Shown one piece after another: positions 6,132 through 62,593 of a stretch of 64,000 nt of DNA. Below the pieces are notes generated by a model that ran no database searches, had not been told where the DNA came from, and worked only from the letters and a program-made list of their open reading frames with translations. Source of the DNA: an uncultured Methanosarcinales archaeon. GTDB taxonomy: Archaea > Nanobdellota > Nanobdellia > Woesearchaeales > GCA-2686295. Within the stretch, counting starts at the first letter, position 1; every line of letters begins with the position of its first letter. A program made the position numbers and the translations under genes. The stretch covers positions 4,974 to 68,973 of the forward strand of contig CAYOEA010000009.1 in assembly GCA_964402995.1 (NCBI GenBank). The letters are read 5' to 3'.

Positions 6132-6980
6132 TTAGCTAAAAAAGCGTTCAACATTAGAAAATCTTATTTTTACGTAATCTTTTGCTAAAAGTCCGCTATT
6201 TTTTAGAGTCTCTAAAGCCCCCATTACATGCGTACTTCCTTTTGGTATTCTAAACCCTGCGCTTCGACTTAATTCATCTAATTGTTTTAATCCTTCTGCA
6301 CGTGCTATTATTGAGGCCGCTGCAACTTCAACATAACTACTCTCTGCTTTTGTTTCAGCTATATCTCCAACTCTACATCCTGGGTATAAGTCAACTACGT
6401 GAATTGAAATCTCAGTTTTCAACTTTACATTTACTTGTCTGTGAAGCTTATCCAATAGTCGAGTCACATTATCCACTTTTGTTAGCTCATTATACTCATA
6501 AGGCTTTAAGGAAACTACATAATAATTATTCGGGAAAGTTTTAACAAGACGCTGCGCAAGTATCATAATTGATGCATCTTCAAAAGTTTTTGAATCACCA
6601 ACGCCCATATTTTCGAGCTGCTCCCTTTCAGAACTGTTTGCTCTAAATCCTGCGACGACTATTCCTCCAAATGTATCTCCTTTTAGTGTTTCATCGCTTC
6701 CAACTATTTCTTCTGCAAGTGGTTCAAGTCTTGTTTGCTCATCTGCCGATTTAGTAAATTTAGAATTAGAAGTGGATTTTGAAACTTTTTGTTTTGCTTC
6801 TAATCCAAGAAATATCCTAACATCATTTGCAATCTCTGATTTCCCTTGAACCAATATTTTTCCTGTTTGATATAGAATTACGGTACATGGTCCTTGCATT
6901 CTTGCAATTTCATATTGTTTTGGACTTACAAAATTAAAGCCTTTAGCTTCTAATTTCTTTAGATTATCAATGTCTACCAA
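6132..6980 (-). CDS. rnhC: Ribonuclease HIII
   Basis: N-terminal TBP-like segment (TVILYQTGKILVQG), GSDE..KGD motif, VAAASIIAR; TTG start with AGGTGA Shine-Dalgarno inside the rnhB 3' end. Confidence 0.85.
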   Translation of the reverse strand: MVDIDNLKKLEAKGFNFVSPKQYEIARMQGPCTVILYQTGKILVQGKSEIANDVRIFLGLEAKQKVSKSTSNSKFTKSADEQTRLEPLAEEIVGSDETLKGDTFGGIVVAGFRANSSEREQLENMGVGDSKTFEDASIMILAQRLVKTFPNNYYVVSLKPYEYNELTKVDNVTRLLDKLHRQVNVKLKTEISIHVVDLYPGCRVGDIAETKAESSYVEVAAASIIARAEGLKQLDELSRSAGFRIPKGSTHVMGALETLKNSGLLAKDYVKIRFSNVERFFS

Positions 6981-6983
6981 TTT

Positions 6984-7640
6984 TTAAAACTCACCTAAAC
7001 GTTTCTGAGCAGCTTCTTTTTTCTTATTCTGCCAAGTCTCCCATGATTTTCTAAAATATTTTGAGAATTCAGTTTTATTCCAATATTTAGCTACAAATTT
7101 TTGAGTTATTGGATCTGATGCGTATCCTGAGCCAACTTCTTTTTTAATTGCTTTACGCATTTTCTCCATTTCTCTATCTCGAATAACTTTTGCAATTATA
7201 CTTGCAGCACCAACTATTAAATAATTTAAATCAGCTTTATGTTCTACTATTATTTCAGTCTTTTTTCGACCAAGTCTTTTCTTAATATAATCAGAATAAC
7301 TCTTCAAATTTCTACTTGGACAATCAAGTATTGCCTTATCAGGTTTTGCGGTCTTTACAAGCGCAGCTGTAGTTCTAGCTTCTATCCAATTCAAATTATC
7401 GGTCTTTGAATTTAATGCATCATCAACTTCACCAGGCGTCACAATTACATAATCAACTTTACATAATTCTTTAACTATAGGAAATAATTCTTCTCGCTTT
7501 TTCTTAGAAAGTAACTTAGAATCTTTTACACCTATTGCATGTAGTTTAAATTCATCTTCTTTTTTGATGCTTGCAATAGCCATTACTAATGGACCTAAAA
7601 CAGGTCCTCTGCCAGCTTCATCTACTCCTGCAATAATCAT
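6984..7640 (-). CDS. rnhB: Ribonuclease HII
   Basis: GVDEAGRGPVLGP, DSK, EHKAD, AASIIAKV.RD, GSGY.SDP. Confidence 0.97.
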   Translation of the reverse strand: MIIAGVDEAGRGPVLGPLVMAIASIKKEDEFKLHAIGVKDSKLLSKKKREELFPIVKELCKVDYVIVTPGEVDDALNSKTDNLNWIEARTTAALVKTAKPDKAILDCPSRNLKSYSDYIKKRLGRKKTEIIVEHKADLNYLIVGAASIIAKVIRDREMEKMRKAIKKEVGSGYASDPITQKFVAKYWNKTEFSKYFRKSWETWQNKKKEAAQKRLGEF

Positions 7641-13515: not shown

Positions 13516-15384
13516 TTATTCAGAATGAATTGTTCTTTTTAATTCTATAAACTCTTTATACTTTACTGCTTCTAAAATTAATTTTCCAACTTTATTTTTC
13601 TTTGCAATTTTTATTATTGCTTTTCTTGAAGATCTTGCAGTCAAAGTATATTCACCTTCTACATACACATCAACATCATCTTCTGCGTATTCTGTTGGAA
13701 GCATAAATACCACATTAGTATTGTGTATTTTCGATGTAAAGTTTATAGATTCTGCAATTGTGGATTTATTACTTGGCTCCACACCAGTTGATTCTTCATA
13801 GTCTCTTATATCAATACTCATTCGAAGTTTCTTTTCGAGTTTCTCAATATTAGATCCGCCTTTTCCAATGATTGCAGCTCTATCTTTATCAAGTACATAA
13901 ACTATACACTTATTATTTGAAACAACATCAACTTTTACTTTATCCGTATGTTTTTTGAATTCTCGAACAATAGCATCTTCTGCTAAACTATGAGCAGGTG
14001 CTTTTGCCCCATCACCAGATACGGGTATTACAACTGTTTGTTCTCCGAAAGTGTAAATTTCATATTCAAGTTTTCCTGTTAAAAAATCATTTATGACAAC
14101 AACAGGTCTTGCTAAATCTTGTTCTATCATTCCTGAGGGAACTTTAACTTCCATTGATAATGAAAAAACATTTCCTATTCCACCATCTTTTATGAAGATT
14201 ACTGTATCAACAATATGAGGTATTACTCCAAGTTCAATTCGTCCAATAAATCTTTGTATTGCATCAATAGCTTTTGTTGCGTGCATTACTCCAATCATTC
14301 CAACTCCAGATAATCTCATATCAGAGAATAATCTAAAATCTTCTGTATTTCTCATCTCATCAAAAATTGTATAATCAGGTCTTGACAATAATAAGATATC
14401 ATGTATTTCTTGACTTGATCCATGACTTAAAGAATACTGAGTTACATCAGGCGGTAAAATTAAATCTCTTGGCGCTTCAACAGTTTTTACAACTTTATTT
14501 TGCTCTACATAAGATTCTGCAAGTGCTTGTGCAAATGTTGTTTTACCATTTCCTGGCGCGCCCGCAATTAAGATTCCTTCTGCTTGTCCTCCAACTCTAA
14601 GTTTTAATTTATCAGATAAAGAATATTCTTCTATTGTTAATCTTTTTACAGGTCTTACTGCAGTTATTTCATACCCATCTGCAAATGGTGGTCTAGTAAT
14701 TACAATTCTATAATTTACTAATTGAATTATTGTAGACCCTTTTCTGTCAATTTCAATAAATCCATCACTTCTTGAAGCACATTCTTCAGTTATTTTTTTT
14801 GCAATTTGAGATACGTCCATTCCGGTTAATGGTGCGTCTCCAATTTCTTCATAAGTCCAAGCTCCAGGTTTCCCTTTCTTTGCTTTTGCAACACATCCAT
14901 CTTTTAGATGTACACTCATCGTTGTTTCATCAAAATATTGTGCTAAAACTAATTCTTCGTCAGATTCAGTTTTTCTAAAATCGTAAAATATTACCTCGAC
15001 TCCTTTTGATTCTGCAACTAATGCTTGCACTCTATCTGCAGTAATTAATGTTCCTAATTCGTCAATTGCAAGTCTTCTGATTATAGAATCAATTTCTCCG
15101 GCTTTCGCACGTCTAATTTCAAAATCTCCAGGTCTATTGCCTTTAAACTCAACAGCAAACTTGTATTTCTTTGACATTTCTCGAAGTTTTTTTACTTCTT
15201 CTAATCCTAAAAGCCCTGTTTCTCGACCTCTATTAGCTTGCGCTTCTAATTCAGCCATTACAGCCTCGTGAAATATGATAATTTTTGGCTTTAGCTCCTT
15301 TGCTACTATCTGTTTTGAAATTATTCCTTCAATAACAACACTTGTGTCCGGTACTAACTTATCGACAGTTTTCATAGATTTCAA
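13516..15384 (-). CDS. PINc/VapC-family ATPase (PINA-type: PIN + P-loop ATPase + KH)
   Basis: PIN motif VPDTSVVIEG, Walker A GAPGNGKTT, Walker B IFDEMR, KH motif AIIGKGGSNI. Confidence 0.9.
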   Translation of the reverse strand: MKSMKTVDKLVPDTSVVIEGIISKQIVAKELKPKIIIFHEAVMAELEAQANRGRETGLLGLEEVKKLREMSKKYKFAVEFKGNRPGDFEIRRAKAGEIDSIIRRLAIDELGTLITADRVQALVAESKGVEVIFYDFRKTESDEELVLAQYFDETTMSVHLKDGCVAKAKKGKPGAWTYEEIGDAPLTGMDVSQIAKKITEECASRSDGFIEIDRKGSTIIQLVNYRIVITRPPFADGYEITAVRPVKRLTIEEYSLSDKLKLRVGGQAEGILIAGAPGNGKTTFAQALAESYVEQNKVVKTVEAPRDLILPPDVTQYSLSHGSSQEIHDILLLSRPDYTIFDEMRNTEDFRLFSDMRLSGVGMIGVMHATKAIDAIQRFIGRIELGVIPHIVDTVIFIKDGGIGNVFSLSMEVKVPSGMIEQDLARPVVVINDFLTGKLEYEIYTFGEQTVVIPVSGDGAKAPAHSLAEDAIVREFKKHTDKVKVDVVSNNKCIVYVLDKDRAAIIGKGGSNIEKLEKKLRMSIDIRDYEESTGVEPSNKSTIAESINFTSKIHNTNVVFMLPTEYAEDDVDVYVEGEYTLTARSSRKAIIKIAKKNKVGKLILEAVKYKEFIELKRTIHSE

Positions 15385-15508: not shown

Positions 15509-15525
15509 CTATGCCGCGGTCGCAT
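15509..15525 (+). repeat. Upstream duplicate of the tRNA-Ser 5' end
   Basis: CTATGCCGCGGTCGCAT identical to 15579-15595. Confidence 0.85.
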
Positions 15526-15582
15526 TAGTCAAAAATTAACTAATAATTTTTGGAAATTCGACCGAGACAAAGAAAAAACTAT

Positions 15583-15705
15583 GCCGCGGTCGCATAGCCT
15601 GGTATTGCGCAGGATTGCTATGTACAATTGTACGTATGAAAACCTACAATATCTCGCAGAGATCCTGTTCCTTTGGAATCATGGGTTCAAATCCCATTCG
15701 CGGCG
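15583..15705 (+). tRNA. tRNA-Ser(GCT) with a 41-nt intron at 37/38 (15621-15661)
   Basis: GCCGCGG/TCGCGGC acceptor stem, G73, CAGGA/TCCTG anticodon stem, long variable arm; BHB central helix TTGC/GCAG with TA|T and AG|A bulges (outer helix relaxed). Confidence 0.94.
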
Positions 15706-15745
15706 CCTTTTTTATTTCTAAAAAAGTCTTCTTAAAGATTTGAAC

Positions 15746-15836
15746 GGGTTCAAACACTCAAAAACAAAGTTTTTGGTGTGACCAAAAATCCCAAATTTTT
15801 GTGCATCCCATTCGCGGCGCCTTTTTTATTTCTAAA
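15746..15836 (+). pseudogene. Duplicated tRNA-Ser 3' fragment interrupted in the T-loop by a 51-nt palindromic element
   Basis: GGGTTCAAA (15746-15754) + insert 15755-15805 + TCCCATTCGCGGCGCCTTTTTTATTTCTAAA; 15805-15836 is identical to 15691-15722. Confidence 0.75.
15755..15805. repeat. Double-hairpin palindromic element, copy A
   Basis: CACTC-AAAAAC/GTTTTT-GGTGTGACC-AAAAAT/ATTTTT-GTGCA. Confidence 0.75.
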
Positions 15837-15889
15837 CAAACAAACGACTAAAAGAAGTATTCGCAACCAACGAGCGAAATCGTTAATTA

Positions 15890-15913
15890 CATTCGCGACA
15901 CTTTTTTATTTCT
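15890..15913 (+). repeat. Third, degenerate copy of the tRNA-Ser 3' end
   Basis: CATTCGCGACACTTTTTTATTTCT versus CATTCGCGGCGCCTTTTTTATTTCT. Confidence 0.65.
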
Positions 15914-15951: not shown

Positions 15952-16401
15952 ATGAATGTCAACATCAAACAAAGACCCGAATTCAAAGACTTAGGAATCC
16001 CTCAATACGAAACAGAAGGTTCTGCTGCTGTTGATTTAAGAGCTGCTATTGAAAACACTAAAACTCTTAATCCTGGCGAATCCATGCTTATTCCAACTGG
16101 TTTATTCATAGAAATTCCTAAAGGCTACATGCTTCACATCACTCCTAGAAGTGGTCTTGCATTAAAAAAATCAATTAGCATTGTTAATTCTCCCGGAATC
16201 ATTGATTCTGATTATCGAGGAGAAATTGGAATTATTCTAATCAATCATGGTGACGATGCATTTTCTATAAAAAGAGGAGACCGTATCGCACAAGCATCTT
16301 TTGTTGCTTTTGGAAAAGCAACTTTCAATAAAGTTGATGAACTATCTAACCTTAACACTCAAAGAGGAGAAGGTGGTTTTGGAAGTACAGGCACAAAATA
16401 A
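15952..16401 (+). CDS. dut: dUTP diphosphatase (trimeric)
   Basis: SAAVDL, PRSGLA, GIIDSDYRGE, RIAQ, RGEGGFGSTG. Confidence 0.98.
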   Translation: MNVNIKQRPEFKDLGIPQYETEGSAAVDLRAAIENTKTLNPGESMLIPTGLFIEIPKGYMLHITPRSGLALKKSISIVNSPGIIDSDYRGEIGIILINHGDDAFSIKRGDRIAQASFVAFGKATFNKVDELSNLNTQRGEGGFGSTGTK

Positions 16402-24685: not shown

Positions 24686-24918
24686 CGAACCCAGGGGGAC
24701 TTTCATAACGAATCCACATAGTTTTCCACTAAGTAAGATTTCGCAAAGCGAATATCTTACCGACGCTAGCCGTCAACGAGTATTCATTGTTTTGAACCCC
24801 CGATCTACAGCTTACTTCTAAAATAGCAAAATAAATGCTAAATTTATAGGAGGCTGTCGCCTTATTTGCCCAAAAAAACTGCTAAAACAGTTTTGTTACC
24901 AGACTAGGCTATAGGTTC
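24686..24918 (-). tRNA. tRNA-Arg(CCT) with three introns: 24866-24898 (19/20), 24813-24846 (37/38), 24700-24790 (59/60)
   Basis: Exons join to GAACCTA TA GCCT AGTCTGGATA AGGC G ACAGC CTCCTAA GCTGT AGATC GGGGG TTCAAAT CCCCC TGGGTTC G (75 nt), with A20 and G73; BHB-like motif at each junction. Confidence 0.9.
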
Positions 24919-28458: not shown

Positions 28459-29802
28459 TTAAACTATTTTTCTTGCTTCAACGTAAAATCTTTTTTCATT
28501 TGCTTCACCCATAGAAAAAGTCTTTCTTGGTAAAGCTCCTTCAAGAATTACACTTTTAAAAAAACTATTTTTATCTATTGAATCTAAAAAGAATCCACAA
28601 TTACCAGTTTTTTGTCCAAGTTCACAAACTACATCAGTTCCATGCACATAATCAATTTCTTCCGCATTTCCTAAACTAACAAATTTATCTAAAAACTTTT
28701 GAAGCGTTCCATAAGTTAAATTTGAAGTTGGTTTATTGAAAGTAATTAATTTATAATTATTTAAATTAATAAAACCAAATATTTGCTTATCACCTGAATT
28801 CTCAACAGTTGTAATCATTTCTTCTTTTGAACACTCTTTAAACTCAAGAGTTTCACCAAATTCTTCTTTCAATGCGATTTCAAAATCTTTTTTCACATTA
28901 AATAATACTCTATGAATTGGTTCAAACTCCATTGCTTCAGAATGAATATTCATTAATTCAACTAAAGCAAATCTTGATGGATGATCCATACCTTTCTCAG
29001 ATTTTGTGCTTTCCCAAATTGTTTTTGCAGTTGCTAAAGAATGATTTCCATCTCCCATTGCAAATAATAATACATCTTCTTGACCATACTTATCTTTACA
29101 AACTACAGGATCAGCAAGTTTAGCAAGTTCAGTTAACATGTTATTTGAAGTTTCTAAATCAAGTCTATAACCTTTAACATGACCACCTTCCATCATTAAT
29201 TCAAAATCATATACTTTATCTAAATCTGATTTCAAACTCGTCAATGGTTCAATAACCTTCTTTTCTCTATCATCAATTAAAACCATTATATGAGGTAATT
29301 CAATTAAAGCATTTTTTCTAACTTCAACTCTAGGAGGTAACCTATCAACGATTGTTCCTTCAGTTGCTCTAATTAAACTTTTAGAATCAACACTAAAATC
29401 ATAATACTCTAAATCTAATGCTACAACTAATCCTTGTCTAGTTTTACCATTAATAGTTCTTTCAACATAAATTATTCCTTCTTCCTCACTCAAAAGTTTT
29501 TCTTTTGGTGCACTAGCAACTTCATTGCTCTGTGCTTCTAATAATTCTTGTTCTAAATACTCACTCATAGAATCATTTATGTTTTGTATTCTTTTTTCTT
29601 TATCCTCGTCTTTCAAATAAACTTCAGGATAAACTAATTTTAATGTTGAAGGTTCATCAGCTACTAATTCAGAAACACGTTTCCAATAGTCTGGTTCACT
29701 TGTATATTGATCACAAGCTACAACTGCCCATTTAGTCATGTCCACATTCTTGTTTGGTAAAAGAATTTTTGGTATTTTTACTCCTATGTTTTTAAAATCC
29801 AT
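28459..29802 (-). CDS. DUF1015 family protein carrying an in-frame palindromic insertion
   Basis: KWAVVACDQYTS, IRATEGT, ELPHIM.LIDD, MGDGNHSLATAK, EPIHRV, LPRKTFSMGEA. Confidence 0.88.
   Translation of the reverse strand: MDFKNIGVKIPKILLPNKNVDMTKWAVVACDQYTSEPDYWKRVSELVADEPSTLKLVYPEVYLKDEDKEKRIQNINDSMSEYLEQELLEAQSNEVASAPKEKLLSEEEGIIYVERTINGKTRQGLVVALDLEYYDFSVDSKSLIRATEGTIVDRLPPRVEVRKNALIELPHIMVLIDDREKKVIEPLTSLKSDLDKVYDFELMMEGGHVKGYRLDLETSNNMLTELAKLADPVVCKDKYGQEDVLLFAMGDGNHSLATAKTIWESTKSEKGMDHPSRFALVELMNIHSEAMEFEPIHRVLFNVKKDFEIALKEEFGETLEFKECSKEEMITTVENSGDKQIFGFINLNNYKLITFNKPTSNLTYGTLQKFLDKFVSLGNAEEIDYVHGTDVVCELGQKTGNCGFFLDSIDKNSFFKSVILEGALPRKTFSMGEANEKRFYVEARKIV
29487..29535. repeat. Double-hairpin palindromic element, copy C (inside DUF1015 CDS)
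   Basis: CACTC-AAAAG/CTTTT-GGTGCACT-AGCAA/TTGCT-CTGTGC; read on the minus strand as AQSNEVASAPKEKLLS. Confidence 0.75.
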
Positions 29803-29928: not shown

Positions 29929-29977
29929 CACTCAAAAACTAAATGTTTTTGGTGCACCAACAATTAATTGTTGAGTG
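29929..29977. repeat. Double-hairpin palindromic element, copy B (overlaps ppdK stop)
   Basis: CACTC-AAAAAC/GTTTTT-GGTGCACC-AACAA/TTGTT-GAGTG. Confidence 0.75.
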
Positions 29978-33384: not shown

Positions 33385-33696
33385 TTAACCAGTATGATAA
33401 TAACCAGCCATACAAACACCGCCTCCAGTGCAAGTAGAAGAACAAGAACCTCCCGTCCAAGAACCACACGAACCAACTTTATATGCATAACCATCATCAT
33501 CAAATTCGAAACAACCACATGATAATGACTGAGTCGCAGGTGGTCTACTTGGTCTTTGACCAGCAATATTCTCATCATTTAAATCTATTGGCACTATTTT
33601 TGTCGCTGATTTACCACCAATTAATACAACTAGTGCAACAATTGCCACCATTGCTACAATTGCAATATAAACCATTGCATTATTATTTTCAGACAT
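33385..33696 (-). CDS. Small membrane-anchored/secreted 6-Cys protein, cassette 1
   Basis: Leader MSENNNAMVYIAIVAMVAIVALVV...NIAG, then a Gly/Ser-rich core with 6 Cys; AGGTGA SD. Confidence 0.8.
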   Translation of the reverse strand: MSENNNAMVYIAIVAMVAIVALVVLIGGKSATKIVPIDLNDENIAGQRPSRPPATQSLSCGCFEFDDDGYAYKVGSCGSWTGGSCSSTCTGGGVCMAGYYHTG

Positions 33697-33777
33697 TTTA
33701 TCACCTTTTAGTTTAATTATAAACTTAATAAGAAAAATAATCAGATTAATACTATTTAAATATTTCTACAACTCTAT
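33630..33777. repeat. Constant unit of the cassette array (leader + promoter), copy 1
   Basis: Near-identical to 34751-34899; more diverged copy at about 34166-34322. Confidence 0.85.
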
Positions 33778-33939
33778 ATCAACAAAATAATAATCAGAAT
33801 ACACCTATCACATAAATTTCTAACCCCAAAAAAAACTGTGTTTTAAAAATATTTATAGTATAGAATATATGTTAAAGAAAAATTATAAAATTAAAGAAAA
33901 AAAGAAAAAAATTCAAGATTTAAATTTGAGATTATATCT

Positions 33940-34239
33940 TTATTCCCAGTTAGCTGCTGCGCCAGCATTACATCTAGTTACACAACCTGAATCATATCCT
34001 GTACAACATCTTTCACATTCTGATGCTGGAGGAGCAGTACAACCAGAGCTATACATAGTATTACCGCCAGTAGATAATTTTCCTGAAGATGCAAAAGCTA
34101 ATCCTGCTTGATTTGCGTCATCCATGCTTAATACTTTTGTTGTTGAATTTCCACTAATAACAACTACTAGTGCTACTATTGCTACCATTGCTACAATTGC
34201 AATATAAACCATTGTATTATGATCATTATTTTCTACCAT
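33940..34239 (-). CDS. Small membrane-anchored/secreted 6-Cys protein, cassette 2
   Basis: Leader MVENNDHNTMVYIAIVAMVAIVALVV...NQAG; core with C-x7-C-x2-CC-x6-C-x3-C. Confidence 0.8.
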   Translation of the reverse strand: MVENNDHNTMVYIAIVAMVAIVALVVVISGNSTTKVLSMDDANQAGLAFASSGKLSTGGNTMYSSGCTAPPASECERCCTGYDSGCVTRCNAGAAANWE

Positions 34240-34389
34240 CTTATCACCTTTTAATTTAATTTTAACTTAATAATACCTCATATTTTAGATTAATACTATT
34301 TAAATATTTCTACAACTCTATCTTGACAAAAAAATAATCTTAATTTAAAAATCAAAGAAGAAATAAATAAAAAATTAAAAAAAAATTAA

Positions 34390-34818
34390 TTAGTAAATTG
34401 ATCCTGCTGCTGCCTTAGCCGAACACCCACTACCACCGGAATAACCAGAAGGAGGATTACATTCACACTGTCCACTACCTTCCTTTGAACAAGTACCAGT
34501 TACAGTTGAACCATCAGAATCTTTTGTAGCAGTACATGTTAACCAACACCAAGTACGAGCCGCATCAGCTTCATGCCAACCACTTGCACCAGGAAGACCA
34601 TATGATCCAAATGATTCTAAAGGATTAGATGCTTGAGTTGATCTTAAAAAAATTCTTGAACTTGCTAATCCTGCTGAATTTGCATCAACATCATTCACAA
34701 TAGGTTCTAAACTTACAACTTTTGTTGCTGAATTTCCATTAATAACTACTACTAGTGCAACAATTGCCACCATTGCTACAATTGCAATGTAAACCATTGC
34801 ATTATTATTTTCTACCAT
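34390..34818 (-). CDS. Small membrane-anchored/secreted 6-Cys protein, cassette 3
   Basis: Leader MVENNNAMVYIAIVAMVAIVALVV...NSAG; longer core with 6 Cys. Confidence 0.8.
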   Translation of the reverse strand: MVENNNAMVYIAIVAMVAIVALVVVINGNSATKVVSLEPIVNDVDANSAGLASSRIFLRSTQASNPLESFGSYGLPGASGWHEADAARTWCWLTCTATKDSDGSTVTGTCSKEGSGQCECNPPSGYSGGSGCSAKAAAGSIY

Positions 34819-34887
34819 TATATCACCTTTTAGTTTAATTATAAACTTAATAAGAAAAATAATCAGATTAAATCTATTTAAATATTT

Positions 34888-35658
34888 CTACAACTCTATC
34901 TCGACAGGACAATGATCAGAGCCTAATATTTCAGGCAATATTTTTGCAGATTTTAACTTTCCAATCATTTTCTGAGAGACTAAAAAATAATCTATTCGCC
35001 AGCCAACATTTCTGCTTCGAGCACCCATTCTATAACTCCACCATGAATATGCGTCTTCTTTGTCAGGGTAGAAATGTCTAAAACTATCAACAAGTCCAGC
35101 TTCTAAATGCTTAGTCATTCCTTCTCGTTCTCTATCTGAAAACCCAGGACTTCCAAGTTTAGTTGCAGTAGTCATATTTGGCTTTGAATTTTTCAAGTCA
35201 ATTTCTTTATGCGCAGCATTTAAGTCCCCGCATATTACAACTGGTTTTTTCTTATCTAAATCCATTATAAAGTTTCTAAACGCATTATCCCATTCGACTC
35301 TATAATCAATTCTTGCTAACATATCTTTTGAATTTGGAGTATAAACATTTACTAAAAAAAAGTCTTCATATTCTAAACTTATAACTCTACCTTCTTGATC
35401 GTGTTCTTCAATACCCATATCATAAATTACCGCGTAAGGTTCAACTTTTGAGAAAACTGCTGTGCCTGAATAACCCTTTTTTTCTGCACTATTCCAATAT
35501 TTATATGGATAGTCTAGCAGCATTAAATCTACTTGTTCAGGTCTGGCTTTTGTTTCTTGTAAACATAATACATCAGGTTTCTCTGAGTTTACAAATTCGT
35601 AGAAATTTTTCTTTATTATTGCTCTTATTCCATTTACATTCCAAGAAATTAGTTTCAT
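34888..35658 (-). CDS. xth: Exodeoxyribonuclease III / AP endonuclease
   Basis: SWNVNG, LCLQETK, GYSGTA, NVYTPN, CGDLN.AH, WRIDYF, SDHCPV. Confidence 0.97.
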   Translation of the reverse strand: MKLISWNVNGIRAIIKKNFYEFVNSEKPDVLCLQETKARPEQVDLMLLDYPYKYWNSAEKKGYSGTAVFSKVEPYAVIYDMGIEEHDQEGRVISLEYEDFFLVNVYTPNSKDMLARIDYRVEWDNAFRNFIMDLDKKKPVVICGDLNAAHKEIDLKNSKPNMTTATKLGSPGFSDREREGMTKHLEAGLVDSFRHFYPDKEDAYSWWSYRMGARSRNVGWRIDYFLVSQKMIGKLKSAKILPEILGSDHCPVEIEL

Positions 35659-35699: not shown

Positions 35700-35745
35700 C
35701 ATTCAAAAGCAATACTTTTGATGCGCCAAAACGTTAGTTTTGTGC
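35700..35745. repeat. Double-hairpin palindromic element, copy D (intergenic, upstream of xth)
   Basis: CATTC-AAAAG/CTTTT-GATGCGCC-AAAAC/GTTTT-GTGC; CAT/ATG is a compensatory change of CAC/GTG. Confidence 0.7.
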
Positions 35746-35762
35746 GTTTGAGCATCATCTTA

Positions 35763-50452: not shown

Positions 50453-50556
50453 GAAGCATTTTCAGAACAATAAAGCACACATTTGTGCTTAATAATTTAT
50501 TTTAACTTATTTTTACAAAACGTTTATAAATAAAAAGTTCCTTCCTAAAGGAACAA

Positions 50557-50704
50557 GTGTGAACGGGTCCTTTTTCGAACTGAACGTAAAGTTCTTTGTT
50601 ATGAGACTAAGACACCCTCACGCGTGTCAGCCCGACACAGAGAGTACCTATTCGAGCCACGACGATTGTCAATGCGATGAAACTGGGAGTTAGTGACTCG
50701 GGCA
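50557..50704 (+). ncRNA. Candidate structured ncRNA of unknown family
   Basis: GC-rich island; TTTATAAA box at 50523-50530; helices GTGTGA(AC)GGGT/ACCCTCACGC and GCCCGA/TCGGGC; T-run downstream. Confidence 0.45.
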
Positions 50705-50983
50705 TTATTAATTTTTAATCATAAAATCACAAATTCACAGAACAAGTTCATTACTATCATAATCATTCATAATCATTTACAGCAGTAAACAATAGTAAAC
50801 TTGTTCTTAGCATAAACTTCAAATCAAAAAAAGTATGATGTATTAGACCTAATTTATAGTGTCTTATCGAATTGTGATTCTTGATTAACTTAACTAAAAA
50901 ATAAACTAAATTACGATTATTAAGAGGAACGAGAAACAAACAAAATTTTTTGTACCTCAAAATGTAATTTTGGAGGAAATAAA

Positions 50984-52242: not shown

Positions 52243-52314
52243 ATATTAAATATTTTTATTTTATATGCCAGAAAAGAAAATTTTTTCTGAGCATTTTTAC
52301 ATTATTTTTCTAAA

Positions 52315-56168: not shown

Positions 56169-57246
56169 TGAAGTTATAGATAAAATTACCGCGCATGCTA
56201 AAAATATTTATCGTGATATTAAAGTAAGAACAAAACCAATTATGAGTTCACCTATCAGAGCTTTAAGCAATGTTAGATATGATTTAGAAGAAGGTTTCTT
56301 TGACTTAAAAGGTAATATGAAAAGCAGAACTCTTTCAGCTACAACGGTTAAGACTTTTGCTCAAACTTTAAAGATGATGTCTTTATCAAAAGAAATAATT
56401 GAGACTAAAGATATTGCAACTAAAAGAGAGGCTTATTATGTTTCTAAAAACTGGGGCGATGCACGCTTTAATGAACAACCTGAATCAGATACTGTCATGG
56501 ACGACATTGAAGCTATGCTTGGAATTAACCGTGAGAAATTAGGTTTTATTCCTGAAGAAAAAGGCGGAGATATTGCAGGTAAACTTATTGTTATTGATAA
56601 AAACCCTGACAATGGTAAAGAAATCAAAATTGACTGTACAAAATTTGGTAGTGGAGCTTACTCTATTCCTTCAAGTGTTGAAGAACTAAAATTCGAAACA
56701 GATGCAGAATTCATTCTTGCTATTGAAACTGCAGGTATGTTCCAGCGTTTAGTTAAACACAATTATTGGAAAAAAGCAAATTGTATTTTAATTAGTATGG
56801 GTGGAGTTCCTACTCGTGCTTGTCGTAGATTTATCCGACGACTCTCGGATGATAAAAATCTTCCAGTTTTAGTTTTCACAGATGGAGATTTCTATGGATA
56901 CTTTAACATCTACAGAACATTAAAAGTAGGTTCAGGAAACGCAGCTCATATCAATAAATATTTCTGTGTTCCAAATGCGAAATTCATCGGAATTACCCCG
57001 CAAGATATCATTGAATATAAGCTTCCAACACATCCGCTTAAAGATATTGATATTAAACGAGGTAAAGACGCTCTTAAGAACGATCCATTTGTTCACCACC
57101 ATAAGCCTTGGCAAAAAGCAATTAAGCAGCAAACTGAGCTTAAAGCCAGAGCAGAACAGCAAGCACTTGCTAAATGGGGTTTAAATTTCGTTGTAGATAC
57201 TTATCTTCCTGAAAAGTTAAAGAAAAGAGACACTTGGCTTCCTTAA
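56152..57246 (+). CDS. top6A: DNA topoisomerase VI subunit A
   Basis: TKREAYY, ILAIET.GMF.RL, GVPTR, FTDGDFYG..I, AEQQAL. Confidence 0.97.
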   Translation: MMIMSSEVIDKITAHAKNIYRDIKVRTKPIMSSPIRALSNVRYDLEEGFFDLKGNMKSRTLSATTVKTFAQTLKMMSLSKEIIETKDIATKREAYYVSKNWGDARFNEQPESDTVMDDIEAMLGINREKLGFIPEEKGGDIAGKLIVIDKNPDNGKEIKIDCTKFGSGAYSIPSSVEELKFETDAEFILAIETAGMFQRLVKHNYWKKANCILISMGGVPTRACRRFIRRLSDDKNLPVLVFTDGDFYGYFNIYRTLKVGSGNAAHINKYFCVPNAKFIGITPQDIIEYKLPTHPLKDIDIKRGKDALKNDPFVHHHKPWQKAIKQQTELKARAEQQALAKWGLNFVVDTYLPEKLKKRDTWLP

Positions 57247-57487
57247 AAACGCGTTTTAGTTTTTAAGGTACAAAAATAATTATTATTATTTTTGAATACC
57301 TAAAACTAGCTTGCTAGTTTTACAATATAAAAAGAAATAATTTAATTTTTTATCATACTTTTTCTTTAAATTCTTTTTTAAGAATTATTTGTAGAAAACT
57401 AAATCAACTTTAAAATAATTACTTCAAAGTTAGTTTCCATAAAAAATCTAACAATCTTTTTAAATCTGAACTTCAAATATTTATTCT

Positions 57488-61645: not shown

Positions 61646-62443
61646 GTGAGTTTTATGACTATTCAAATTAAAAAGCTTCTTTCTAATGATAAGGCTTTAT
61701 TCTTAGCTTATGATCAGGGAGTTGAACATGGACCTACAGATTTTAATGTGAAAAACTGCGATCCTAATTATATTTTAGATATTGCTCTTGAAGGACGATA
61801 CAACGCAATAATTTTAGAACATGGTACTGCAGAAAAATACTATCAAGATTATTACAAGGATATTCCTTTAATAGTTAAACTTAGTGCTGCAACTTCTATG
61901 ACTAGAAATGAACCTCGTTCAAGACAAATGTGTTCTGTTGAAAGAGCAATTAAACTTGGAGCGTCTGGCGTTGGTTATGTTATGTATAATGGAAGCGAGT
62001 TTGAACAGGATATGATGGTTGAATTTTCGAAGATTGTTGACACAGCACATGATTATGGTCTTCCTGTCGTTGCATGGGCATATCCTAGAGGAAAATTTGT
62101 TGAAGATCAAAATAACACTCAAACTGTTGCTTATGCAACTAGAATTGCAGCTGAACTTGGTGCTGATATAATTAAAATCCGTTATAATGGAGATATTGAT
62201 GGTTTAAAATGGACTATCAAGAATGCTGGTCGTGCAAAAGTCGTAATTGCAGGCGGTAATCATGATGCAGGTCATGAGGGTTTCTTAAAAATGGTTAAAG
62301 AAGTTACTGATGCAGGAGCGCATGGTATTGCTGTTGGTCGAAATGTTTGGCAAGATGATAAACCTTTTTCATTAACAAAATCATTGCAAAGTATAATCTT
62401 CCATAAACATTCAATCGAAGAGGCAAAGAAGTTTCTTAAATAA
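61646..62443 (+). CDS. fbaB: Class I (DhnA-type) fructose-bisphosphate aldolase
   Basis: LAYDQGVEHGP, AIKLGASGVG, VAWAYPRG, AAELGADIIK, VIAGG, VGRNVWQ. Confidence 0.93.
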   Translation: MSFMTIQIKKLLSNDKALFLAYDQGVEHGPTDFNVKNCDPNYILDIALEGRYNAIILEHGTAEKYYQDYYKDIPLIVKLSAATSMTRNEPRSRQMCSVERAIKLGASGVGYVMYNGSEFEQDMMVEFSKIVDTAHDYGLPVVAWAYPRGKFVEDQNNTQTVAYATRIAAELGADIIKIRYNGDIDGLKWTIKNAGRAKVVIAGGNHDAGHEGFLKMVKEVTDAGAHGIAVGRNVWQDDKPFSLTKSLQSIIFHKHSIEEAKKFLK

Positions 62444-62593
62444 ACTTCTTGATTTAAAAAAAACATTTTTTTAAAGCAAAGAAATACCTAAAGTAATTTT
62501 TTAGAATAATTTTATTTTTTATTAATTATTTTTAATCAACATATTTCTTAATTAAAATCAATAGAAAAAAAAGAAAATAATAAATCAACTAAT

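Follow-up and report, generated by a model that had tools for sequence, protein, structure and literature searches.

A dispersed hairpin-doublet repeat between two copies of the 3' end of an intact tRNA-Ser gene in a DPANN archaeon

The window analysed here, by which we mean the whole 64-kb stretch of DNA, is a coding-dense segment of an archaeal chromosome with a GC content of approximately 30% belonging to the Woesearchaeota (DPANN), and the genomes nearest to it are metagenome-assembled genomes labelled Woesearchaeota, Nanoarchaeota or Nanoarchaeia (DPANN archaea). Its genes are housekeeping genes: SMC, RNase HII, XPD, TruD, GatD/E, Cdc48, Topo VI and CDP-archaeol synthase. A spacer of 567 nt separates the gene for a PIN-KH ATPase (positions 13516-15384, minus strand) from that for dUTPase (15952-16401), and contains the gene for tRNA-Ser(GCU). 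Among dUTPase homologues from other species the best is 70% identical, and for the PIN-KH ATPase the best locus reaches 73%, which is too distant to order the events on a fine tree. The tRNA-Ser(GCU) gene (15583-15707, plus strand) is intact, as indicated by Rfam model RF00005 (40.6 bits), by ARAGORN with introns allowed and by exon matches to the tRNA-Ser of relatives. It carries a 41-nt intron at the canonical position 37/38 (15621-15661; ARAGORN -i), its T-loop is uninterrupted, with A59 at 15691 and T60 at 15692, and a run of six T follows the discriminator base. A low-threshold ARAGORN prediction of a tRNA-Arg(CCG) on the minus strand (15762-15907) was discarded as spurious, its acceptor stem reading AAAAAAG.

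Behind this gene lies a composite module whose outer parts are two direct copies of the tRNA 3' end. The first copy (15692-15722, plus strand) comprises tRNA nucleotides 60-73 (TCCCATTCGCGGCG) and 17 nt of 3' flank (CCTTTTTTATTTCTAAA), and is part of the functional tRNA-Ser gene and its terminator; the second (15806-15836, plus strand) is a displaced, non-functional version of the same nucleotides 60-73 and 17-nt flank. Both are identical over 31 of 31 positions, or over 33 of 34 if the alignment is extended to 15725. The insert between them begins with a left arm (15723-15754, plus strand) made of AT-rich filler and a small hairpin (inverted repeat I20), in which GATTTGAAC (15737-15745), the exact antisense of T-loop nucleotides 53-61, pairs with GGGTTCAAA (15746-15754). 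The latter sequence is the same as nucleotides 51-59 of the T-arm (15683-15691) and doubles as the 3' arm of the left hairpin that belongs to the element itself. No decayed tRNA body from the anticodon loop onward is recognizable in the left arm, whose alignment scores were no better than those of shuffled sequences or other tRNAs, and the clear target copy is limited to the segment from T60 onward. The arrangement was likewise rejected as a simple tandem duplication of a 114-nt unit, there being no similarity past the repeat of 31-34 nt. Nor does it represent a split or permuted tRNA gene, as an intact tRNA-Ser(GCU) stands directly upstream of the fragment.

The remainder of the insert is a 51-nt core (15755-15805, plus strand) that forms an inverted doublet of two imperfect hairpins. 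The first (15755-15778) pairs CACTCAAAAAC with GTTTTTGGTG around a bulged T, and the second (15779-15805) pairs TGACCAAAAAT with ATTTTTGTGCA, with bulges. The covariance model R1 of the repeat family described below recognizes this core with 58.5 bits (E=6e-14), and its opposite strand with 40 bits. The junction is ambiguous by one A (left extension of 1). No Rfam family matched the element region at E<=1, and inspection of the 51 nt by eye revealed no C/D-box motifs. The preliminary description of this DNA had reported a 51-nt double hairpin followed by a tRNA 3' fragment with 17 nt of identical flank, which holds in three assemblies, and had placed GGGTTCAAA before the element with a junction uncertain by one A, which the repeat alignment bears out.

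That description had also named misassembly as a possible source of the arrangement. The 567-nt spacer is identical throughout in three sequences (L001, L004 and L005), which come from two ENA assemblies and one JGI assembly, and because these are three independent assemblies with an identical tRNA-Ser spacer we consider misassembly unlikely. Logan contigs (k=31) and two MEGAHIT contigs stop at the repeat, as is expected of a repeat. A search for an empty-site allele yielded no other junction in four assemblies, whose contigs end at the repeat. Chance does not explain the arrangement either, given an exact repeat of 31 nt and a repeated 9-mer in intergenic DNA of 30% GC, together with the E value of 6e-14 from the covariance model.

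Several repeats that the preliminary description did not contain surround the same gene or lie elsewhere in the window, namely another, third 3'-end copy, a duplicated 17-nt stretch of the tRNA 5' end with a hairpin of its own, and other copies of the repeat family. The third 3'-end copy forms part of an older relic downstream of the module (15869-15913, plus strand; repeat family D1, 66% identical), in which the single hairpin AACGA-GCGAAA-TCGTT (15869-15884) precedes a decayed version of the tRNA 3' end with its flank (15887-15913; TTACATTCGCGACAC-TTTTTTATTTCT). At the other end of the gene lies a mirror-image 5' module (15509-15595, plus strand; repeat D2, inverted repeat I1), with a partial match to R1 of 10.3 bits. 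Here a 17-nt direct repeat, CTATGCCGCGGTCGCAT, covering tRNA positions -4 to +13, occurs at 15509-15525 and again at 15579-15595, and the two copies enclose a 53-nt insert that starts with a single A-run/T-run hairpin of the family type (15529-15552) and also contains antisense tRNA nucleotides 1-10 (CGACCGAGAC, 15559-15568, 8 of 10 matching). A hairpin equivalent to that of the 5' module comes after GCAT in the relative L011, and in L017 the copy of the 5' end is joined by a hairpin of another kind (CAGAAAC/GTTTCTG). The tRNA-Ser gene is thus bracketed by displaced copies of both of its own ends, each abutting a hairpin at position 13/14 or 59/60.

Inverted hairpin doublets of approximately 52 nt form a dispersed family, of which the 51-nt element is a member. 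Homologous cores were obtained from relatives through synteny (L089, L092 and L096) and through a pattern scan of metagenomes (L097-L111), and the 12 cores have a constant length of 51-52 nt. The first hairpin of the family takes the form CRCTCARAAAY-loop-RTTTYTGGYG with a bulged T, and the second is approximately the reverse complement of the first, with a bulged A. In the family alignment (A2) 96% of the cells are paired (some 4% unpaired) and nine of 21 pairs covary; standard variant pairs are always altered on both sides, with neither one-sided changes nor G.U pairs (0 of each), and every control scored much lower. Within the 64-kb window R1 found seven family copies at E<0.05, mostly intergenic. 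The second full doublet (29929-29977, no strand assigned; 56.6 and 55.1 bits on the two strands, and also a pattern match) lies at the 3' end of the gene for pyruvate phosphate dikinase and has neither a tRNA nor a flanking duplication beside it. A third, intergenic copy (35700-35746, no strand assigned) scores 37 bits on both strands, and the others lie at 29487-29534 (30 bits), 52244-52293 (28 bits), 57241-57298 (21 bits) and 62424-62477 (16 bits). Strand scores are similar for most of the window copies, as opposed to the 58.5 and 40 bits of the copy at tRNA-Ser. Relatives hold many more intergenic copies, at least seven in the 13 kb of L106, and most family copies have no adjacent tRNA and no flanking target duplication.

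Two-fold symmetry and all-or-none compensation, together with a flip of a hairpin loop in one of the relatives described below, point to a family that is maintained as palindromes at the DNA level. The compensatory changes could instead mark selection on an RNA and not self-correction of palindromes.

Beside tRNA genes the element occurs in a stereotyped layout, which recurs in at least nine other genomes. An intact tRNA is followed by its flank (a few to 20 nt), a left arm of some 30 nt, the doublet core and a copy of the 3' end of that same tRNA from T60 onward. This order is found behind tRNA-Ser(GCU) in the window and in L089, L092, L096 and L099, behind Ser(GGA) in L098, behind Phe(GAA) in L107, behind Gly(GCC) in L104 and behind an Ala-like tRNA, read by eye, in L102; a further locus, L109, is cut at a contig edge and has the same right-hand junction as the other tRNA-associated loci. 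The preliminary description had proposed that the duplication of the 3' end leaves the tRNA gene intact, and this is what the window, L089, L092, L096, L098, L099, L102, L104 and L107 all display; in nine of the 10 complete tRNA-associated copies, L109 being incomplete, the tRNA itself is uninterrupted. The direct repeats begin at T60 in every locus except L024, where they begin at C61; they are 14-37 nt long as scored, and each matches the tRNA of its own locus. The two repeats stand 72-83 nt apart in five loci, four of which fall within 80-83 nt. Tandem arrays of two modules each were found in L098 and L102, and the two units of L102 differ by a loop flip (CTTTG in one, CAAAG in the other). 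The downstream copies have decayed in L089 (12 of 14 in the tRNA part, 24 of 37 when extended), L104 (14 of 17) and L024 (12 of 14), and these mismatches indicate that downstream copies are not constrained in the way that exons in use would be.

The left arm closes with a small hairpin that has TTCAAA as its 3' arm, for example TTTGAAC-GG-GTTCAAA in the window and TTTAGAA-GGGATTT-TTCAAA in L096 and L098, and pairing of TTTGA(A) with TTCAAA is present also in L089, L092, L096, L098, L102 and L104. The search pattern behind six of the supporting loci demanded TTCAA, so that the apparent constancy of this motif is inflated, and the three loci found by synteny (L089, L092 and L096) show the TTCAA motif too. 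The left boundary of the module is uncertain, because the left arm is weakly conserved. In its tRNA-associated form the element includes TTCAAA.

A census of the last 14 nt of tRNAs (at least 12 of 14 matching) counted 10 of 42 tRNAs with a copy of their own 3' end 16-260 nt downstream and none of 42 with such a copy upstream, in a sample that is partly biased by the way in which loci were fetched; L017, L019 and L043 (tRNA-Ala) come from the unbiased synteny set. These three loci have a variant form in which the 3' end is present first in antisense and then, after a hairpin, in the sense orientation.

The right end of the element falls where tRNA introns also occur. The tRNA-Arg(CCU) gene of the window (minus strand, 24918-24686) has three introns with lengths of 32, 34 and 91 nt. 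Intron 3 (24790-24700) lies at 59/60, as established by splicing in silico and by ARAGORN; the preliminary description was therefore right in equating the insertion position with that of tRNA-Arg intron 3. The orthologous tRNA-Ser(GCU) gene has a resolved 59/60 intron in 11 relatives, among them L011, the closest relative by GTDB, and a far longer insert seems to interrupt the tRNA-Ser of L085 at 59/60 too. A reading as a proto-intron would hold that the repeat lands in tRNA loops, that the 3' duplication rescues the gene, and that the insertion later becomes an intron with a bulge-helix-bulge (BHB) motif; a deletion from GGGTTCAAA to GGGTTCAAA would yield a tRNA-Ser with a 51-nt insert at 59/60. 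Consistent with it are the right junction, which is exactly at 59/60, the site of tRNA-Arg intron 3 and of the introns of 11-12 tRNA-Ser(GCU) orthologues, the 9-nt direct repeat that provides a one-step route of deletion, and the broad-specificity splicing endonucleases that passages of PMC3239211 and PMC5829648 report for DPANN archaea. In addition, the end TGAGCA|T, shared by most of the family, could pair with TTCA through one G.U, and one relative (L110) carries the element at 59/60 of a gene resembling tRNA-Gly(CCC), without the duplication, as the reading would have it. That tRNA-Gly has two acceptor-stem mismatches and an A1-U72 pair once the element is removed, however, and may be a pseudogene, and in nine of the 10 complete tRNA-associated copies the tRNA is uninterrupted, as noted above.

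The comparison with genuine introns speaks against this route. Genuine 59/60 introns end in TGAAAG|T or TGAAAA|T (GCAAG|T in L067), and in the four that were folded the T-stem, the TTCA/TGAA helix and a 3-nt bulge constitute the structure of minimum free energy or lie within 0.7 kcal/mol of it. The element, on the other hand, has no helix after the bulge and prefers its own two hairpins, the thermodynamic prediction being that a forced BHB fold costs +3.1 kcal/mol for the window copy and +6.0 kcal/mol for that of L110. The would-be 4-bp helix of the window copy sets TTCA against TGTG, with one mismatch as previously described, which is a U.U. At E<1e-3 R1 gave no match in any of the 11 genuine 59/60 introns of tRNA-Ser that are complete, nor did it match the four introns of tRNA-Arg and tRNA-Ser in the window, so that none of these genuine introns fits the family model. 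Moreover, a BHB intron interrupts a complete tRNA, and the element is flanked by just nucleotides 51-59 and 60-73. As modelled, the element is not intron-like in sequence, structure model or predicted fold.

Three short resemblances were recorded apart from this comparison. A 14-mer of the older relic's hairpin (15869-15884) recurs on the opposite strand in the first hairpin of the L011 intron, and the L044 intron shares the 11-mer TGACCAAAAAT with the element; such matches are weak once multiple comparisons are allowed for. A proposed relationship of the genuine intron of L016 to the modules of L017, L019 and L024 was unconvincing, as it consisted of just one common 10-mer.

The maturation into a BHB intron that had been proposed for this element finds no counterpart among the introns of the lineage, and the observation that had been named in advance as evidence against it was made: TTCAAA, with its upstream TTTGAA or TTTAGAA partner, travels with the element behind different tRNAs. 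What stands of the earlier proposal that the repeat lands in tRNA loops is that its right end abuts T60 time after time and that the rescuing duplication recurs with it; what does not is the history of a single duplication followed by a hit in the T-loop, since the arrangement is stereotyped. We regard the proto-intron reading as unsupported and unlikely. Chance does not account for a junction fixed exactly at the intron site 59/60, in which biology at the RNA level could have a part.

The distribution of introns in relatives can also be read in the opposite direction, with the ancestral tRNA-Ser possessing a 59/60 intron and an intron-less 3' end having been installed upstream of it, through partial duplication or through recombination with a spliced copy, so that the old intron and 3' exon are now a relic. 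The presence of a 59/60 intron in the orthologue of L011 and of many others is in agreement with this history, as are the 14-mer of the older relic in the L011 intron (opposite strand) and TGACCAAAAAT in that of L044. These short matches are weak, nevertheless, and R1 misses the genuine introns; the element is a dispersed repeat and not specific to the locus, the insert recurs behind other tRNAs with their own 3' ends, and the duplication takes in 17 nt of untranscribed flank past the T-run and hence is not derived from a cDNA. A former intron seems to us quite improbable.

Direct repeats that run from the T-loop past the 3' end of a tRNA gene are described in a passage of PMC3293823 as typical of elements that integrate into tRNA genes. 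The two copies might accordingly be attL and attR of a tRNA-targeting element that has lost its body through deletion, be it casposon-like or a plasmid or virus equipped with a tyrosine recombinase, with the hairpins as a remnant or a later hit; the preliminary description had offered an emptied att scar as its alternative. The serial copies at the tRNA-Ser locus would suit such an origin, and so would the target of the casposase, which includes the T-arm palindrome and undergoes a duplication overlapping the tRNA 3' end (PMC5137440). Yet no integrase gene or other gene of such an element was found in the window, only about 80 nt lie between the repeats, and an insert of the same family stands behind five tRNAs with repeats that match each target, where an attP carried by the element would be constant; the length of the duplication is not fixed either. 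In viral contigs a scan for attP with the 16-mer TCCCATTCGCGGCGCC returned 23 matches, all of them chance matches in phage contigs of 51-66% GC and outside a tRNA context. The scar is therefore a poor account of repeats that are specific to their targets, and we give it little credence.

There is also the question of whether the module does anything for the cell, its hairpins and second 3' end being co-transcribed with the tRNA and used as an alternative 3' exon, as a minihelix-like decoy, as a processing or terminator element, or as the promoter of the dUTPase gene. The widespread arrangement, the covarying stems and the conserved bulged T would fit a functional RNA; L019 and L043 fold as minihelix-like palindromes (3'-end antisense, hairpin, 3' end), and of the two copies in L017 and L019 only the second carries a T-run. 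In the window, though, T6 follows the first copy and read-through should be rare, mismatches in the acceptor strand accumulate in the downstream copies (L089 and L104), the absence of G.U variants and the two-fold symmetry fit DNA palindromes better than RNA, and Rfam provides no match. A functional module appears doubtful to us, and the module probably has no role in the maturation of tRNA-Ser.

Taking these results together, the explanation that we favour, with confidence a little above even, is a recurrent insertion of a hairpin-repeat DNA accompanied by a long target duplication of variable length that keeps the tRNA intact. The element with its left arm of about 30 nt would have been inserted just 3' of tRNA-Ser(GCU), inside a target duplication of 31-34 nt that extends from T60 to 17-20 nt beyond the end of the gene. 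The duplicated stretch reaches from the insertion point past the gene end, so that the upstream copy completes an intact tRNA with its T-run terminator, and the downstream copy (15806-15836) would be a by-product that is free to decay. We infer that the event took place at the DNA level and was driven by hairpins, starting from a nick or a stall of replication at the D-arm or T-arm hairpin of the tRNA gene and being resolved through template switching or through repair against the sister chromosome. Such template switching would produce one fixed junction at 59/60, a variable outer junction, antisense snippets in the filler and flips of loops. The outer junction of the duplication is indeed variable and always outside the gene, and the hairpins stand at the fixed junction in an arrangement mirrored at the two ends of the gene. 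The survivors would be only those outcomes that leave a whole tRNA gene, and the same process would have acted on tRNA-Ser at least twice at its 3' end and once at its 5' end (D-loop position 13/14). No integrase or transposase gene, RAYT and IS200/IS605 types included, was found among 50 open reading frames of the window, and to our knowledge a duplication of 14-37 nt is longer and more variable than that made by any transposase. A bolder version, in which D-loop position 13/14 and T-loop position 59/60 of tRNAs are specific landing sites of DPANN hairpin repeats, the duplication spares an essential single-copy gene, and deletion between short TTCAAA repeats occasionally leaves the hairpin in the gene and seeds the non-canonical introns frequent at these very positions, strikes us as improbable.

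Intron transposition and integration of mobile elements are among the routes proposed for the gain of non-canonical tRNA introns in archaea. The locus and its relatives present a family of hairpins that is tied to tRNA ends, with a junction at intron-prone positions and with the gene kept intact, which is apparently an undescribed behaviour of a REP-like repeat in DPANN archaea. Should modules of this kind convert into introns, intron gain would become directly testable and would have a concrete route at the DNA level. In practical terms tRNA annotation will be confused by the pseudo-tRNA fragments to which the module gives rise, and the repeat breaks assemblies made with short k at tRNA loci.

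Placing the module among known systems requires comparing its individual features with each of them. It resembles the footprints of integrating elements, as these are presented in part of PMC3293823, in the direct repeat of a tRNA end, the reconstituted gene, the intron-prone position and the serial events, and the same source outlines the model of Sugahara et al. 2012, in which introns are gained from an attP that bears one. It differs in having neither recombinase nor body, in repeats that derive from the target and in an insert that is a tiny conserved hairpin unit. With casposons and Cas1 it has in common a target defined beside the T-arm palindrome and a core with inverted termini, but casposons duplicate a constant 15 bp, of which only 5 bp lie within the tRNA (PMC5137440), and the duplication of the module spans 14-37 nt counted from the T-loop, around a non-coding insert of about 80 nt. 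Compared with archaeal 59/60 BHB introns as portrayed in portions of PMC4090602 and PMC4033280, the right end abuts T60, TTCAAA precedes it and a length of 51 nt is within range; nonetheless the element lies outside the complete tRNA gene, has neither a predicted BHB nor a TGAAAG|T end, is unrelated to the 59/60 introns of the lineage and has copies far from tRNAs.

The inverted termini of the core recall a MITE, which would have a fixed, short target site duplication, in contrast to the duplications of this family, which are 14-37 nt long, variable and absent at dispersed copies. In bacteria, RAYT HUH transposases mobilise repetitive extragenic palindromes (REPs) and their doublets (REPINs), which are short and imperfect, keep an extrahelical base conserved, are intergenic and of high copy number and often form inverted doublets, with a structure that is conserved while the sequence drifts. 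We know of no REP that makes long target duplications. The present family differs from REPs and REPINs in being archaeal (DPANN), in having a subset at tRNA ends with long target duplications, and in that no RAYT or IS200/IS605-type gene was seen among 50 open reading frames of the window. In all other respects compared the likeness to REPs and REPINs holds: the family is dispersed and mostly intergenic, and it is built of imperfect hairpins with an extrahelical base that are joined as an inverted doublet.

The 5' end of the tRNA-Ser(GCU) gene in the window is duplicated as well. A second copy of 17 nt of the gene (positions -4 to +13) lies 70 nt upstream of the first, the copies and the insert between them occupying positions 15509-15595. 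A single hairpin of the type found in the dispersed family of inverted hairpin doublets stands within this insert immediately 3' of GCAT (tRNA position 13/14), and the insert also holds an antisense copy of nucleotides 1-10 of tRNA-Ser. In the closest GTDB relative (L011), whose own 5' copy has diverged, an equivalent hairpin follows that copy. L011 and L096 each have one more 5' copy, in which a hairpin lies in the D-loop.

Examination of the relatives also identified a variant of the module in which hairpin and duplicated tRNA end are associated, in locus L043 (2620-2790, minus strand) and in the tRNA-Ser loci of L019, L017 and L024. In all four the tRNA is followed first by its 3' end in antisense, then by a hairpin, GCTG and the 3' end in sense orientation. 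The antisense copy is the equivalent of the 5' strands of the acceptor and the T-stem. An RNA from this variant would be predicted to fold like an acceptor/T-arm minihelix of the upstream tRNA.

In-silico splicing of the tRNA-Arg(CCU) gene (24686-24918, minus strand), missed by both ARAGORN and Rfam, confirmed three introns, of 32 nt in the D-loop, 34 nt at 37/38 and 91 nt at 59/60. The tRNA-Ser(GCU) of L048 has a genuine 59/60 intron of 32 nt, with an internal T-arm-like hairpin (GAAGG-TTCAAAT-CTTC).

One family copy of 48 nt (29487-29534; 30 bits with R1, the covariance model of the family) falls within a DUF1015 ORF (28459-29802, minus strand), spanning residues ~90-106 (AQSNEVASAPKEKLLSE). 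Its length is divisible by three, and the palindrome may therefore have been inserted in-frame into the protein gene.

Elsewhere in the window, three tandem paralogous units of ~540-580 nt (33385-34940), 70-89% identical in nucleotides to one another across the repeat blocks, each contain a small minus-strand ORF (99-142 aa) without Pfam match. Two neighbouring genes (6132-7640; 282 and 218 aa) belong to the RNase HII family, the match of the first being far weaker than that of the second. Ahead of the DnaG-like primase gene, a spacer of 531 nt includes an apparently structured, GC-rich segment of ~165 nt (50555-50720; GC up to 67%) without Rfam match even at E<=1. This segment might encode an SRP RNA or RNase P RNA of divergent sequence, or some other ncRNA.

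Hairpin elements also occur in tandem. Upstream of tRNA-Ser(GCU) in L090 (1400-1690) lie at least three double-hairpin units of 56 nt (TCAAAAAC..GTTTTTGG / TGGTTTTTC..GAAAAACA), in an array broken by an assembly gap (Ns). Two tandem modules of 127 nt each on the reverse strand of L102 (bases 1-560 of the reverse complement) differ solely in the loop of the first hairpin of the doublet, inverted from CTTTG to CAAAG or vice versa, a change of the kind typical of template switching in palindromes.
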